The notes: generated by a model not told the origin, from the letters alone. 64,000 bases of DNA from Erysipelotrichaceae bacterium (GCA_015059185.1 SVAY01000008.1:1587-65586); one strand, 5' to 3'. Counted from the first letter of the stretch, positions 41,911 to 53,881 are shown. Numbers and translations: made by a program.

Positions 41911-44031
41911 TTATAACTTGATTCTCACTATTGTGATTGATTTTTCATCCTCATATTTATAATCATAAGATGATGCTAAATCTTTAATGATGGATAACCC
42001 AAATCCTCCTTCATCCATCTCGGGATCAAAAGATTCTACATATTTTTCTTGATGATTGATAAACGGGTTATAATCGTTACCATTAGAACTAATAACAATT
42101 TCTAATACATCTTTACCAAGATTAAAATCAACATCAATCTTTAAATCTAATCTTGTTTCATATGAAACTAAATTATTAATTAATTCATCAATAACAACAC
42201 CCGCTGCCGCTTTAGTTTCACTTCCTAAATAAGAATAATATTCATTAAATCTATCAACAATATCAGAGATAATCTCATATTCTTTTTTATCATATGACAG
42301 ATGTAATTTATGATCGTTATTTTTAACAACAAGCATCGTAACATCATCAAATTGTTCAACATCACCCACGAACTCTTCGAGTTTATTATTCATCACGTCA
42401 ATAATGTTATCGATCGCTAAATCTCTATTATCATATAAAGTCTTCTCAATACGTTCATAAGAGAATTCTTCTCTAGTGTGATTAATCGATTCATTTAATC
42501 CATCAGTAAATAAGAAGATATAATCTCCCTTCTTAAATGGATGAGATTCTTGTTTATAAATAAAGTCAGCTTCTCCACCCATTACAAAATTTGATTCGCC
42601 GTCTAATTTAGTGACCTTATCTTTAGAAACGATATATGGCTTTTCATGTCCAGCGTTAACATAGGCAATAACATTCTTCTTAAAGTCAATAATACCAATG
42701 AAGGAAGTCACAAATAGGCTTTCTTTATCACTATTAACAAGAGTGTCGTTCACTATTTTAGCAACTTCTTCAAGATTGTCATATGAACGGATTGTCGATT
42801 TAATTAATTCCTTACTCTTCATCATAAATAAAGCCGCAGGAATACCTTTACCGCTGACATCAGAAATAACAACGGCAAGCCTATTATCATCTAAATAGAA
42901 ATAATCATAGAAATCACCGCCAATTTGTTTAGCAGATTTGATAAATGCACGAATATTTACATTTTTATCATCATAAATATGACTTGGTAACGCGCCGAGT
43001 TGAATACTATTAGCAACATTTAATTCTGCATTATCTTTCTCTTTTTCGTATGCTTCTTTTTGAATAACATCAATATATTTAATAATATCTTCTTCTAATG
43101 AAACAAATGATTCAGATAAGAGGCTGATTTCATCACGTGATTTAACATGAGGGTCTTTCTTTTCTAATGGTTTTCCTTCTTTTAAATCATTAGAGAAGGA
43201 AGCTGCAGATTTAGTTAATTTACTAACATTTCTAATAAGCAAAAAATGCGCTCCTAAAGCATAAGCAATAATCATCACAATTGAGCTAATTGATAAAACT
43301 ATAATCTCTGTTTTTAATAATGAATTAGCGTCTGAATCCACCTCAACAAAATCATATTGAATAAAAAGATAAGCAATATTATTTCCATCTGTATCATTAA
43401 TAACCATCACACGGTTAAGCTTATTATTATAATTGCAATCATAATAATCGCCATTTAATGTAAATACACCATCAAAACCATGATATTGTGAGCCAGGGAA
43501 ACGCGCCTCTTCTTTAAAAGCCTTACCCTTTTTATAAGAATATTCATCCCCTATAATCATTAAAGTGTCATCATTAAGAAGATAGGCGATATAAGCGGAT
43601 GAAGCCTTTGTTGCCGACTTAGTATCACTTAAAGAATAAGCAAGTTCTTCATAATCGCTTCTAAACTGCATTTCTTCTGGTGTTTGATAATGCATTGCAA
43701 TACCTTCGATTGGATATAACCAATTGAAATAAGTTTTATAGAAATTCTTTTTCTCTTCAAATGTGAAATCTTCTGGAGGATCATCAGGATATGAAGCATA
43801 ACATTCTTCAATATAACTACGAGTTTTTATTAAAGTTGGATAAAAACCATCATCATCTTGAGTAGAATAATCTTCCTTCATTCCACTAAGCCAATTATCA
43901 ATATTATTTAATTCATTTTCCCTACCACGACGTCGATATTCTTGGTCAGCAAAAACTATTGCCACAGTAGTGACTAATATTGAAAGGACTGCTCCCAAAG
44001 CGACTATCTTAAATTTGATAGGGAATTTCAT
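41911..44031 (-). CDS. Membrane sensor with HAMP, SpoIIE/PP2C phosphatase and C-terminal RsbW-like HATPase domain
   Basis: Two TM helices around an extracytoplasmic domain; HAMP (SRDEISLL); GGDFYD, SDVSGKG, NAGH, FTDG, DDVT; then DELINN...SSNG...GGFGL. Confidence 0.9.
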   Translation of the reverse strand: MKFPIKFKIVALGAVLSILVTTVAIVFADQEYRRRGRENELNNIDNWLSGMKEDYSTQDDDGFYPTLIKTRSYIEECYASYPDDPPEDFTFEEKKNFYKTYFNWLYPIEGIAMHYQTPEEMQFRSDYEELAYSLSDTKSATKASSAYIAYLLNDDTLMIIGDEYSYKKGKAFKEEARFPGSQYHGFDGVFTLNGDYYDCNYNNKLNRVMVINDTDGNNIAYLFIQYDFVEVDSDANSLLKTEIIVLSISSIVMIIAYALGAHFLLIRNVSKLTKSAASFSNDLKEGKPLEKKDPHVKSRDEISLLSESFVSLEEDIIKYIDVIQKEAYEKEKDNAELNVANSIQLGALPSHIYDDKNVNIRAFIKSAKQIGGDFYDYFYLDDNRLAVVISDVSGKGIPAALFMMKSKELIKSTIRSYDNLEEVAKIVNDTLVNSDKESLFVTSFIGIIDFKKNVIAYVNAGHEKPYIVSKDKVTKLDGESNFVMGGEADFIYKQESHPFKKGDYIFLFTDGLNESINHTREEFSYERIEKTLYDNRDLAIDNIIDVMNNKLEEFVGDVEQFDDVTMLVVKNNDHKLHLSYDKKEYEIISDIVDRFNEYYSYLGSETKAAAGVVIDELINNLVSYETRLDLKIDVDFNLGKDVLEIVISSNGNDYNPFINHQEKYVESFDPEMDEGGFGLSIIKDLASSYDYKYEDEKSITIVRIKL

Positions 44032-44033
44032 AA

Positions 44034-44333
44034 TTATTTAATAGTTAATACGTTTTTAAAACCTGTGACTTTAAATACTTCTAAACAAATGTTGTTTAAA
44101 TTATGGATTTCTAGCTGTTTTTGTTTAGCTACTAACTCCTTTTTAATAGCTAAAAGTGCCCTTAGGCCAGCAGAAGAAATATATTCAAGTTCTTTCATAT
44201 CAAAAACCACTAATTCTTCTACTATTTCTTCTTTTTCAAAAGAAGCTAACAATTCTTTAGAAGTAGTTGTATCTAATCTACCTACTAAAGTAAAGACTAA
44301 TTCATTTCCGTGTTTAACATTAATTTCCATCAA
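44034..44333 (-). CDS. STAS-domain anti-sigma factor antagonist (RsbV/SpoIIAA-like)
   Basis: GRLDT, LEYISSAGLRALL (phospho-acceptor Ser), FKVTGF. Confidence 0.92.
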   Translation of the reverse strand: MMEINVKHGNELVFTLVGRLDTTTSKELLASFEKEEIVEELVVFDMKELEYISSAGLRALLAIKKELVAKQKQLEIHNLNNICLEVFKVTGFKNVLTIK

Positions 44334-53289: not shown

Positions 53290-53290
53290 A

Positions 53291-53881
53291 TTATATGACC
53301 TCCTTAATGATTTCTATTTCGTAATCATTAACATCTTCTTTTGATGTCGTAATGATTAAAACATCATATCTAATAGTCTTGTTGAAGTAATTTTTATTAT
53401 TATACACTACTATACCGTTTAACGGTAAACCTGGTATAGAGTTTGGTTTATTCCTAATTCCAGTGCCGCTTGCTTTCACTAATGCTTCTTTATTAGTCCA
53501 GATTTCAAAGAATGAAACATTGTCATGAATATAATTTCTCTCTTCAACGTTAGAGATATAATCCATTAAGTCACTATCAACATCACGAATCTTTTCTATA
53601 TCGATTCCAATATTAACGGTGTCCATCACTAAAGCAATATAGCCGTGACTATGACTAATATTAAAATATTTATCTTTGCTTAAGGGTTTACCATATTCGT
53701 TTAGATAATAATCACCGATATATTTACGTTTTAAGATAGTAGAAACAATCTTCTCTTTTTTGACGCTATCAACTGTGTATTTATTAAATGACTCTTTATC
53801 GAGGGAAGTTAAATAACTTGAACCAAGCAAATAATCCAACGAAAGGAGGGAATAATCTAGTAAATATATTTTTAATTTCAC
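53291..53881 (-). CDS. Sfp-type 4'-phosphopantetheinyl transferase
   Basis: GKP, FNISHS, IGIDIE, WTNKEALVKASGTG. Confidence 0.92.
   Translation of the reverse strand: MKLKIYLLDYSLLSLDYLLGSSYLTSLDKESFNKYTVDSVKKEKIVSTILKRKYIGDYYLNEYGKPLSKDKYFNISHSHGYIALVMDTVNIGIDIEKIRDVDSDLMDYISNVEERNYIHDNVSFFEIWTNKEALVKASGTGIRNKPNSIPGLPLNGIVVYNNKNYFNKTIRYDVLIITTSKEDVNDYEIEIIKEVI

Follow-up and report, generated by a model that had tools for sequence, protein, structure and literature searches.

Organization of the Locus

We analyzed a window of 64,000 nt from the genome of an Erysipelotrichaceae bacterium (GCA_015059185.1 SVAY01000008.1:1587-65586). Five tightly coupled genes on its minus strand form one unit, which spans positions 53881-41911 and encodes, in this order, a PPTase, a non-ribosomal peptide synthetase (NRPS), a MATE exporter fused to a GHKL domain, a STAS protein, and a PP2C phosphatase with a GHKL domain of its own. 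The features of the unit and its borders are listed below in window coordinates.

Terminator-like hairpin, 53973-53954: closes the gene upstream of the operon and precedes the promoter-like site
Promoter-like site, 53889..53918, minus strand: TTAACA-18-TATTAT, a consensus match only, just 5' of the PPTase start
PPTase gene, 53881..53291, minus strand: 196 aa, GTG start; Pfam ACPS, E 4e-10
Bimodular NRPS gene, 53289..46072, minus strand: 2405 aa, C(starter)-A-T-C-A-T-R by Pfam
MATE-GHKL fusion gene, 46069..44330, minus strand: 579 aa; Pfam MatE and HATPase_c_2
MATE exporter domain, 44771..46069, minus strand: residues 1-433 of the 579-aa fusion, 12 TM helices; two Pfam MatE matches
RsbW/SpoIIAB-type GHKL domain, 44348..44728, minus strand: residues 448-574; HATPase_c_2, E 3e-16
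STAS gene, 44333..44034, minus strand: 99 aa, single domain; Pfam STAS, E 3e-14
PP2C-GHKL gene, 44031..41911, minus strand: 706 aa; Pfam SpoIIE and HATPase_c_2
Extracytoplasmic domain of the phosphatase, 43318..43944, minus strand: residues 30-238, between two TM helices by hydropathy
PP2C (SpoIIE-family) domain, 42316..43026, minus strand: residues 336-572; Pfam SpoIIE, E 6e-40
Second GHKL domain, 41917..42315, minus strand: residues 573-705; HATPase_c_2, 30.6 bits (cut-off 27.4)
Palindromic intrinsic terminator, 41879..41907, unstranded: 12-bp stem flanked by an A-run and, on the opposite side, a T-run

The junctions between the genes measured +1, +2, -4, and +2 nt in gene order, the negative value being an overlap of the STAS gene with the exporter stop codon. 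The terminator at 41879-41907 lies between the end of the operon and a convergent GlnRS-type gene and is common to both. A first-pass annotation of the window had described five genes with gaps of 1-2 bp or overlaps and a terminator at the end, and ORF and signal analysis agreed with it. The identities that it had assigned (PPTase, C-A-T-C-A-T-R NRPS, MATE-RsbW fusion, STAS protein, and PP2C phosphatase) were likewise recovered with the Pfam and NCBIfam models.

Biosynthetic Genes and Predicted Product

The Pfam order of the NRPS, with two Condensation, two AMP-binding, and two PP-binding domains and one NAD_binding_4 domain, corresponded to C-A-T-C-A-T-R. The enzyme thus shows the two-module build with a terminal thioester reductase that is a feature of gut and rumen dipeptide-aldehyde clusters, and the ACPS domain of its neighbor supplies an Sfp-type PPTase within the cluster. 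Direct reading of the NRPS sequence located the motifs YHLIMDG and HHIICDG in the C domains, LTS and GGTSL in the T domains, and GATGFLG and YVHSK in the R domain; judged by this reading, the catalytic motifs are intact. The A-domain pockets, extracted with motif anchors rather than by alignment with GrsA-PheA and especially uncertain at position 4, were DAMIAGLVYK (hydrophobic type) for module 1 and DAQYDGGITK for module 2. With the same anchoring, the module-2 pocket was essentially invariant, reading DAQ[F/Y]DGG[I/V]TK in 28/28 orthologues. Domain logic predicts an N-acyl dipeptide aldehyde as the product.

In pairing a PPTase with a two-module, reductase-terminated NRPS, the operon resembles both the gut dipeptide-aldehyde clusters and AusAB of Staphylococcus aureus. 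The best NCBIfam models were AusB for the PPTase and AusA for the NRPS, but both scores were under the cut-offs, and the two proteins are therefore not AusA/AusB orthologues. AusA has no starter C domain. Published work on the gut clusters is said to have characterized their chemistry, and neither an exporter fusion nor a phospho-switch. Gut-anaerobe clusters with a bimodular, reductase-terminated NRPS, and their dipeptide aldehydes and pyrazinones, were reportedly the subject of Guo et al. 2017, and the ruminopeptin 'rup' cluster of Ruminococcus bromii that of Schneider et al. 2018. R. bromii makes dipeptide aldehydes, and pyrazinones arise as by-products (review PMC12327764).

The Exporter Fusion and Its GHKL Domain

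The exporter part of the fusion has a 12-TM MATE fold according to both Pfam (two MatE matches) and structure. The AlphaFold model of the fusion reached a pLDDT of 86 and a pTM of 0.86, and Foldseek matched its MATE part to PfMATE, DinF-BH, and ClbM with target-normalized TM-scores of 0.8-0.86. The linker from TM12 to the GHKL domain comprises about 14 residues. Given this pTM and the short linker, the model indicates that the GHKL domain is held in a fixed position on the cytoplasmic face of the exporter.

Because the PDB sequence search of the GHKL domains was only marginal, motif positions were placed by aligning both domains jointly with a canonical paralogue that this genome also encodes. 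In that search, the MATE-fused domain aligned weakly with SpoIIAB (1TH8) over the N-box and G1 (E 0.88), and the PP2C-fused domain had no meaningful match. Neither domain carries a complete N-box/G1/G2 set. The MATE-fused domain has an N-box (EE..N) and a G1 motif (D-D-G) that were invariant in 41/41 orthologues, with its G2/ATP-lid reduced to S-T-S-G. The PP2C-fused domain retains a conserved N-box and G2 (GGFG); the adenine-binding Asp of G1 is replaced by Ser here and was present in only 5 of 33 orthologues. The PP2C-fused copy is probably impaired in ATP binding, as far as these residues tell.

The STAS Protein and the Sensor Phosphatase

The STAS protein matched the NCBIfam anti-sigma antagonist superfamily, with weak matches to MlaB and the DauA STAS domain. 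Pfam and motif conservation identify it as an antagonist of the STAS type, in which helix 3 begins with a conserved Ser/Thr that can be phosphorylated: the motif E-Y-I-S-S-A-G-L, including the SSAG serine that had been called intact at first sight, was invariant in 38 STAS orthologues.

In the hydropathy profile of the phosphatase, residues 9-28 and 243-262 stood out as peaks. The ectodomain that they enclose had no Pfam match, and its AlphaFold model consists of helices followed by a 7-stranded sheet. Pfam, motifs, and fold agreed on a PP2C phosphatase with metal-binding aspartates; among the metal-site motifs in 27 orthologues, DVxGKG, TDG, and FD(D) were invariant and GGDFYD was at least 90% conserved. 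Foldseek matched the phosphatase half to the RsbU-RsbW protein Rv1364c (3KE6), RssB, the PP2C domain of SiaA, RsbX, and SpoIIE. The protein had been described as an extracellular sensor joined through HAMP to PP2C, of which the ectodomain and the PP2C domain held up; no Pfam HAMP match was obtained after TM2 even at E <= 1. In the AlphaFold model, TM2 runs into a helix (263-284) that is followed by a 16-residue connector (285-300) and a further helix from residue 301, so that the region next to TM2 appears HAMP-like in topology only.

Conservation Across Genomes

The survey covered 40 species-level genomes of rumen Bacilli and Clostridia. The NRPS adjoined the MATE-GHKL gene in 39/39 assessable loci. 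The STAS gene came next in 37 of 40 loci, and 33 of 39 assessable loci had the PP2C-GHKL gene. Of the 40 loci, 24 had a PPTase orthologue; it preceded the NRPS in 22 of them and followed the phosphatase in the other two. Junctions in the conserved order measured -4 to +12 nt across dozens of species, and the distance from the fusion to the STAS gene 3' of it was -47 to +7 nt in 36 of the 37 loci having one. As the same order and tight junctions recur in dozens of species, the gene linkage is far beyond chance. The five genes had been proposed to belong together; they do form a conserved unit, and instead of being unlinked elsewhere, NRPS and switch stay together in the 33 of 39 assessable loci. 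In the reading that we favor below, the operon is horizontally mobile.

Partial versions of the unit also occur. Three close relatives lack both STAS and PP2C and three more lack PP2C, with the GHKL domain still intact in all of them; the three without either partner retain an intact fusion of 580-587 aa. Every searchable genome without an adjacent STAS gene carries 2-8 STAS genes elsewhere, so that STAS could be supplied in trans.

Beyond these genomes, MATE-GHKL fusions form a large family, with 405 metagenome cluster representatives at E <= 1e-30. Among 136 diverse fusions, 76-96% had the N-box and G1 residues. Six of six distant representatives (23-36% identity), one labelled Chitinispirillales and one Clostridia, adjoined an NRPS, and neither STAS nor PP2C was found next to any of these six pairs. 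Since MATE-GHKL adjoins an NRPS even where STAS and PP2C are not adjacent, the fused exporter appears to be the ancestral core and the STAS/PP2C pair a regulatory add-on of the rumen clade. The link between MATE-GHKL and NRPS, which extends well past the partner-switch clade, was absent from the first-pass annotation.

Sigma Factors and Known Partner Switches

Partner switching is a textbook means of sigma-factor control. The operon had been noted to encode no sigma factor, and a phmmer search of six-frame ORFs detected no sigma-like ORF within 10 kb at any of 47 loci. In the source genome (1.3 Mb, 94% complete), Pfam Sigma70_r2 matched only three proteins, namely RpoD and two short ECF-like proteins of ~170-200 aa; the latter two had no region-3 match, a weak region 4 in one only, and were located on other contigs. 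No group-3 (SigB/SigF-type) sigma factor was found in this genome with Pfam, nor was a stand-alone RsbW, the only HATPase_c_2 domains above the cut-off being the three fused ones. The kinase-sequestered cognate sigma factor of a partner switch was thus found neither in the operon nor at the 47 loci nor in the genome.

The PP2C, the conserved-serine STAS, and the HATPase_c_2 domains belong to the same families as those of the Bacillus switches RsbU-RsbV-RsbW-SigB and SpoIIE-SpoIIAA-SpoIIAB-SigF. Unlike in Bacillus, there is no sigma factor here, the kinase-type GHKL domain sits on a MATE exporter with a degenerate copy on the phosphatase, and the operon is biosynthetic. Rv1364c of Mycobacterium tuberculosis (3KE6), the top structural match for the cytoplasmic half of the phosphatase (E 1e-17), shares the direct succession of PP2C and GHKL. 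It is a soluble, SigF-linked protein that itself contains STAS and a PAS sensor, whereas the phosphatase described here is membrane-anchored, has an ectodomain, and belongs to a family in which the G1 Asp of the GHKL domain is mostly lost. STAS domains acting directly on membrane transporters are known from the C-termini of SLC26/SulP proteins and from MlaB with the MlaFE ABC transporter. Those systems differ in belonging to other transporter families and in having neither a kinase/phosphatase pair nor a GHKL domain.

A sigma-independent switch is SiaABCD of Pseudomonas aeruginosa, which includes a kinase and in which the unphosphorylated antagonist-like protein acts on an enzyme (PMC7647112). 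It shares with the present operon a membrane PP2C sensor phosphatase (PP2C fold match 6K4E), but its output is an operon-encoded diguanylate cyclase, whereas the candidate target here is the exporter. A like layout is that of mru0066-mru0071 in Methanobrevibacter ruminantium M1, where an NRPS has as its neighbors two serine phosphatases, an anti-sigma antagonist, and MatE (Leahy et al. 2010, PMC2812497). The NRPS is a bimodular C-A-T-C-A-T enzyme whose terminal domain was called a thioesterase, and the authors inferred a bacterial origin (PMC2812497). This cluster differs in its archaeal host, and its layout was listed in the genome paper only. The first-pass annotation had known of no characterized system with the layout of the operon; such a layout had in fact been listed in 2010, without further study (PMC2812497). 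Searching the literature on partner switching together with NRPS or MATE yielded nothing besides that genome paper.

Proposed Mechanism and Alternative Explanations

The reading that we favor, and to which we give about an even chance, is a sigma-independent partner switch that acts on the export of an N-acyl dipeptide aldehyde and is built into the exporter. The MATE-fused GHKL domain would be both the STAS-binding partner and the likely kinase. The membrane phosphatase would dephosphorylate STAS-P in response to an extracytoplasmic cue perceived by its fast-evolving ectodomain. Unphosphorylated STAS might then bind the exporter GHKL domain and change either transport or the coupling of exporter and NRPS, so that release of the reactive aldehyde would be switched post-translationally and not by transcription. 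The degenerate GHKL domain of the phosphatase would most likely be a docking site or a competing binding site for STAS. SiaABCD, as a precedent for a sigma-less switch acting on an enzyme, supports the sigma-free reading. Instead of transport, the target could be the NRPS or something else.

The GHKL domain may also have a role independent of STAS, because it is intact in relatives without STAS and occurs in distant fusions without an adjacent STAS gene. It could be an accessory of NRPS-linked exporters, for example an ATP-dependent or docking module that links assembly line and export, with STAS and PP2C-GHKL as a separate signaling unit carried as a passenger in the operon of this clade. The six distant fusions next to NRPS genes, the three close relatives that kept the fusion after losing both partners, and the family-wide retention of the N-box and G1 residues speak for this explanation. 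It nevertheless seems unlikely to us: HATPase_c_2 is the anti-sigma/STAS-kinase clade of GHKL, the STAS gene is tightly joined to the fusion in all but one of the loci having it, genomes without an adjacent STAS gene carry others elsewhere, and the source genome offers no other free kinase for STAS.

The partner switch that we favor is compatible with a closed autoinducer loop, which concerns the input signal only: the exported peptide aldehyde would itself be the ligand of the phosphatase ectodomain and feed back on STAS. As such a loop would have it, the gene for the sensor phosphatase shares an operon and translational coupling with those for synthetase and exporter in 33/39 loci, and the ectodomain lies between two TM helices. 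Against this, the ectodomain was on average only 19% identical to its orthologues (range 8-38%), compared with an invariant module-2 pocket and 56-84% identity for the NRPS; these are per-domain identities only and thus weak evidence, and a conserved ligand pocket could persist within such divergence. The phosphatase was moreover lost in 6/39 loci that kept synthetase and exporter, and the distant NRPS/MATE-GHKL pairs have no adjacent sensor. Sensing of the operon's own product is weakly disfavored by these sequence comparisons, and we regard the loop as improbable.

A conventional output, with STAS or the GHKL domains controlling a distant sigma factor or transcription regulator and through it the operon or a wider regulon, is in our view a poor candidate. 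To our knowledge, all characterized Firmicutes relatives of RsbW/SpoIIAB act on sigma factors, and the genome, at 94% completeness, does contain two small sigma-70-family proteins. These had no region-3 match and lie on other contigs, though, and there is neither a group-3 sigma factor in the genome nor a sigma-like ORF near any of the 47 loci; in addition, each GHKL domain is part of a membrane protein. Archaea have no sigma factors, and the archaeal layout can therefore not use a bacterial sigma factor as output. That a like layout is listed in an archaeon at all (PMC2812497) also speaks against this explanation.

Finally, we consider it very improbable that unphosphorylated STAS activates the GGDEF diguanylate cyclase encoded at 55654-56739 in the manner of SiaABCD, since the weak NCBIfam matches that suggest it, alongside the Foldseek match to SiaA-PP2C, are all far under their cut-offs (SiaA-like, 55.7 bits for the phosphatase against 700; SiaD-like, 64.3 bits for the GGDEF protein against 290) and the cyclase is not operon-encoded, two unrelated ORFs and terminator-like hairpins intervening between its gene and the operon. 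The GGDEF enzyme had been named as a possible output; its gene is found three genes upstream in the window, beyond two terminator-like sites, a GGDEF match occurred near the cassette in only 1/40 loci and there on the opposite strand, and on this synteny it was rejected.

Wider Significance

More tentatively, and with the chances somewhat against it, a MATE exporter with a built-in RsbW-type GHKL domain could be a general, unrecognized checkpoint of non-ribosomal peptide export in several bacterial phyla and at least one archaeon. From the cytoplasmic face of the transporter, the GHKL domain would gate export or tether the assembly line to the pump, and the addition of STAS and the sensor PP2C in the rumen would turn this into a sigma-free post-translational switch by which an outside cue times the release of a reactive, protease-inhibiting aldehyde. 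The degenerate GHKL domain of the phosphatase may then pair with that of the exporter. Inhibition of proteases, those of hosts as well as those of microbes, has been reported for peptide aldehydes as a class.

If true, this would extend the logic of partner switching to post-translational gating of transport, with an anti-sigma-type domain fused to a metabolite exporter, and would explain the timing of the release of reactive peptide aldehydes by gut and rumen microbes. Phospho-mutants of STAS and the cue of the phosphatase would then provide a handle on silent clusters of uncultured anaerobes. The share of the cassette in the genome (~1% of 1.3 Mb) and its spread over Bacilli and Clostridia, with a like layout reported in a methanogen, argue that its selective value in the rumen is strong. 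The fusion is currently annotated just as 'ATP-binding protein' or 'MATE family efflux protein', and the characterization of one member would re-annotate a large family.

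The five-gene operon

The five ORFs lie on the minus strand, running from 53881 to 41911 with junctions of +1, +2, -4 and +2 nt. ORF calls, Pfam, NCBIfam and motif reading agreed with the five genes described in the first-pass annotation. The HAMP domain that it had placed in the phosphatase was not recovered by Pfam, even at E ≤ 1.

Table. Genes and signals of the operon and its surroundings
PPTase, minus strand: 196 aa; ACPS; best NCBIfam model AusB (Pfam, NCBIfam)
NRPS, minus strand: 2405 aa; Condensation, AMP-binding, PP-binding, Condensation, AMP-binding, PP-binding, NAD_binding_4, i.e., C-A-T-C-A-T-R (Pfam)
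Exporter fusion (MATE-GHKL), minus strand: 579 aa; MatE in two halves and C-terminal HATPase_c_2, E 3e-16 (Pfam/NCBIfam)
STAS protein, minus strand: 99 aa; STAS domain (Pfam/NCBIfam)
Phosphatase fusion (PP2C-GHKL), minus strand: 706 aa; SpoIIE/PP2C, E 6e-40, and a second, marginal HATPase_c_2 (30.6 bits vs 27.4)
53918-53889, minus strand: promoter-like site behind the terminator-like hairpin ending the upstream gene
41879-41907: palindromic terminator with a 12-bp stem, shutting the operon off from the convergent GlnRS-type gene
40204-41868, plus strand: GlnRS-type class Ic aminoacyl-tRNA synthetase with both beta-barrel anticodon-binding domains (PF03950, PF20974)
53992-54399, minus strand: ORF of 135 aa, no match in Pfam or NCBIfam
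54481-55506, minus strand: ORF of 341 aa, no match in Pfam or NCBIfam
55654-56739: GGDEF protein of 361 aa, flanked by the three ORFs without a match
56972-58534, minus strand: ORF of 520 aa, no match in Pfam or NCBIfam

The best NCBIfam model for the NRPS was AusA, with a score below the cut-off. On direct reading, the NRPS retained the catalytic His of both condensation domains (YHLIMDG and HHIICDG), the serine of both carrier domains, and the reductase motifs GATGFLG and YVHSK. As no carrier domain precedes its N-terminal C domain, the product predicted by standard NRPS logic is an N-acylated dipeptide aldehyde. A published gut dipeptide-aldehyde family takes in this biosynthetic core (PMC12327764).

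The terminator of the operon also serves the convergent GlnRS-type gene. Having a dedicated GlnRS is uncommon among Bacilli, where the transamidation route is mostly used. The three unmatched ORFs lie upstream of the operon, and the N-terminal 200 residues of the GGDEF protein between them likewise received no domain assignment from Pfam or NCBIfam.

Conservation of the cassette

We surveyed the co-occurrence of the five genes at 40 loci from species-representative genomes, collected via alignment of MATE-GHKL homologues, with neighbouring genes scored by tblastn and ORF mapping. All 40 came from rumen or ruminant-gut MAGs, 29 labelled Bacilli, Erysipelotrichaceae or Bacillales and 11 labelled Clostridia, Clostridiales, Christensenella or Christensenellales. 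The linkage was kept: at 39/39 assessable loci the NRPS gene immediately preceded the fusion gene, in most cases overlapping it by 4 nt; STAS was the next gene downstream at 37/40, and PP2C-GHKL followed STAS at 33/39. The PPTase gene was present at 24 loci (ahead of the NRPS at 22 and behind the phosphatase at two) and all five genes at 20. Identity to the window proteins was highest for the NRPS (56-84%), followed by the exporter (48-83%), STAS (42-71%), and the phosphatase (30-46%). Three close relatives (L001, L002, and L005) had lost both STAS and the phosphatase, and three further loci (L003, L004, and L012) only the phosphatase; the fusion was intact (580-591 aa) at all six. A homologue was found in 7/201 sampled genomes and 4/52 genera of the window's own order. 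The cassette is therefore, on its conservation pattern across loci, a patchy, horizontally spread island.

The two loci with the PPTase gene after the phosphatase gene (L029:10169-10765 and L040:11538-12140) are Clostridia-labelled, and their cassette is rearranged yet still intact. Judged by ORF N-termini only, the genes beyond the truncated cassette at L003:8765-18323 and L012:12185-21740 encode a response-regulator-like protein, a candidate radical-SAM protein, two ABC-type peptide-exporter-like proteins of ~725 aa, a second 99-aa STAS-like protein, a 384-aa STAS-like protein, and a membrane protein. In this lineage, STAS modules thus recur beside peptide-export genes.

The two GHKL domains

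The motifs of the two GHKL domains were compared in a joint alignment with a canonical PP2C-GHKL paralogue from contig C5, another contig of the same genome. The full motif set was found in neither.

Table. Motif states of the two GHKL domains among orthologues
N-box: MATE-fused, E-E...N in 41/41; PP2C-fused, D-E...N-N in 33/33
G1 box: MATE-fused, D-D-G in 41/41; PP2C-fused, Asp in only 5/33 (Ser 22, Thr 3, Cys 2)
G2 box: MATE-fused, reduced to S-T-S-G; PP2C-fused, G-G-F-G in 32/33

In a weak phmmer alignment, E-E..N and R-D-D-G of the exporter fall on E..N and R-D-E-G of SpoIIAB (1TH8). Because the G1 Asp touches adenine in GHKL ATPases, these motifs suggest that the MATE-fused domain is more likely an ATP-binding kinase than the PP2C-fused one, which is probably a pseudokinase. 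Among 136 diverse full-length fusions, E-E was kept in 96%, the N-box Asn in 76%, the G1 Asp in 87%, and the G1 Gly in 90%, and G2 was reduced throughout.

The AlphaFold model of the exporter fusion (pLDDT 86, pTM 0.86) has 12 TM helices, the last of which (391-433) is followed by ~14 residues and an alpha/beta GHKL domain. Given the high pTM, the model fixes the GHKL domain in place on the cytoplasmic side of the exporter. Foldseek matched this fusion to PfMATE, DinF-BH, NorM, and ClbM. The model of the phosphatase fusion (pLDDT 84) runs from TM1 through an outside domain, TM2, a helix-connector (285-300)-helix and PP2C to GHKL, with the outside domain (~30-226) modelled as a bundle of helices and a seven-stranded sheet. 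Its best PDB match was 3KE6, in which RsbU and RsbW domains are fused (M. tuberculosis Rv1364c), and the next were RssB, SiaA-PP2C, RsbX, and SpoIIE (Foldseek). Among the metal-binding motifs of PP2C, DVxGKG, TDG, and FD(D) were invariant in 27 orthologues, and GGDFYD was kept in at least 90%.

Proposed mechanism and known systems

Domain content, linkage, motif states, and the lack of a sigma partner are the observed basis of the mechanism we propose. The exporter-fused GHKL domain would bind and phosphorylate STAS, and the sensor PP2C would remove the phosphate from STAS-P once its ectodomain is triggered. Unphosphorylated STAS would engage the exporter GHKL domain, altering efflux or exporter-NRPS coupling, and the degenerate phosphatase-fused GHKL domain may dock, or compete for, STAS. 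We consider it an even call that a mechanism of this family, a sigma-free STAS switch acting on the exporter, operates here.

STAS domains acting on transporters have precedents in SLC26 and MlaB. Archaea are not known to have bacterial sigma factors, so the output of the cluster around the NRPS mru0068 of the archaeon Methanobrevibacter ruminantium, if functional, cannot be a sigma factor. Genes for two serine phosphatases, an anti-sigma factor antagonist, and a MatE protein lie around this NRPS, and their best matches are bacterial (Leahy et al. 2010, PMC2812497). The layout, for which the first-pass annotation knew of no characterised system, had thus been seen before, in a 2010 listing accompanied by one interpretive sentence and no experiments (PMC2812497). 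SiaABCD is a precedent for a sigma-free partner switch acting on an enzyme (PMC7647112). The component families and sigma-free partner switches are known; new are the fusion of an anti-sigma-type domain to a MATE exporter, the near-obligate linkage of MATE-GHKL to NRPS genes in different phyla, and the complete switch that accompanies this exporter within the operon.

The exporter fusion beyond the rumen clade

We searched 1.84 billion cluster representatives exhaustively with phmmer and obtained 405 MATE-GHKL homologues at E ≤ 1e-30. Among the best 150, 135 were 560-620 aa long; identity went down to 23%, and most aligned over the full query. Their source labels were 'ATP-binding protein', 'putative MATE family efflux protein', and 'Na+-driven multidrug efflux pump/anti-sigma regulatory factor'. 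We inspected six distant representatives (23-36% identity), with labels including one Chitinispirillales and one Clostridia. An NRPS gene directly adjoined the fusion in 6/6; three of these synthetases were C-A-T-C-A-T-R (2405-2457 aa) and three were larger and multimodular.

No STAS or PP2C was found near the six distant fusions within the contig shown. A role of the exporter GHKL domain that is independent of STAS is rather unlikely in our estimate. A genome-wide search of six genomes (five close relatives without part of the switch and the genome of collected locus L047) found 2-8 STAS genes elsewhere, so STAS may be supplied in trans. The most parsimonious view takes the MATE-GHKL exporter as an old NRPS-associated module, with a dedicated STAS and sensor phosphatase brought into the operon in the rumen clade.

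One distant MATE-GHKL/NRPS pair, with a 4033-aa synthetase (L043:2117-8815), is located immediately downstream of a group of polyamine genes, namely those for Orn/Lys/Arg decarboxylase, spermidine synthase, agmatine deiminase, CN hydrolase, and saccharopine dehydrogenase-like and carboxynorspermidine decarboxylase-like proteins.

Substrate codes and the sensor domain

A-domain pockets were located by motif anchors, without GrsA alignment, and are approximate. The module-2 code was essentially invariant (DAQ[F/Y]DGG[I/V]TK, 28/28) and identical in L045, a distant relative without the switch. Module-1 codes varied and were of hydrophobic type (DAM[I/M]xG[L/I/F/V]V[Y/F]K and relatives). The phosphatase ectodomain had a mean identity of 19% (8-38%), compared with 54% in the PP2C domain. 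A feedback loop in which the phosphatase senses the operon's own product thus appears unlikely: one would expect a sensor tuned to so conserved a product to show more conservation itself, which is weak evidence, as ligand pockets can persist despite low overall identity.

Sigma factors and partner-switch genes

The window's genome (1.31 Mb, 94% complete) contained three Sigma70_r2 matches: RpoD and, on other contigs, two short proteins (~170-200 aa). Neither of the two had a Pfam match to region 3, and only one matched region 4, weakly; by their domain content they are ECF-like, not SigB/SigF-like. No group-3 sigma factor was found in this genome. The absence of a sigma factor from the operon, reported in the first-pass annotation, extended to all 47 collected loci, where phmmer with the three sigma sequences, a search of limited sensitivity, found no sigma-like protein among six-frame ORFs. 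HATPase_c_2 exceeded its cut-off in exactly three proteins of the genome, all fusions (the exporter, the phosphatase of the operon, and a second PP2C protein on contig C5), with no free RsbW or SpoIIAB among these matches. The genome held three STAS-containing ORFs and four PP2C genes. We regard a transcriptional target encoded elsewhere as quite improbable. The GGDEF protein as output is highly improbable: a GGDEF match occurred near the cassette at only 1/40 loci, and the window's flanking genes, this one included, were not conserved beside it.

Outside the window, C5:92667-97710 holds a second sigma-less partner-switch-like operon. It encodes a STAS protein (motif DYISSAGLR), a small alarmone synthetase with a RelA_SpoT domain, a protein with the three domains HD(HD_4)-STAS-APH, and a multi-TM PP2C-GHKL protein whose N, G1, and G2 boxes are fully canonical. 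The gene set suggests that (p)ppGpp metabolism is controlled by phospho-STAS, possibly with cross-talk to the NRPS-linked STAS. The small genomes (1.1-1.9 Mb) that hold L001, L002, L005, L003, and L012 each contain 4-8 STAS genes. In this reduced-genome lineage, partner-switch parts seem to serve as a main signalling currency, uncoupled from sigma factors.
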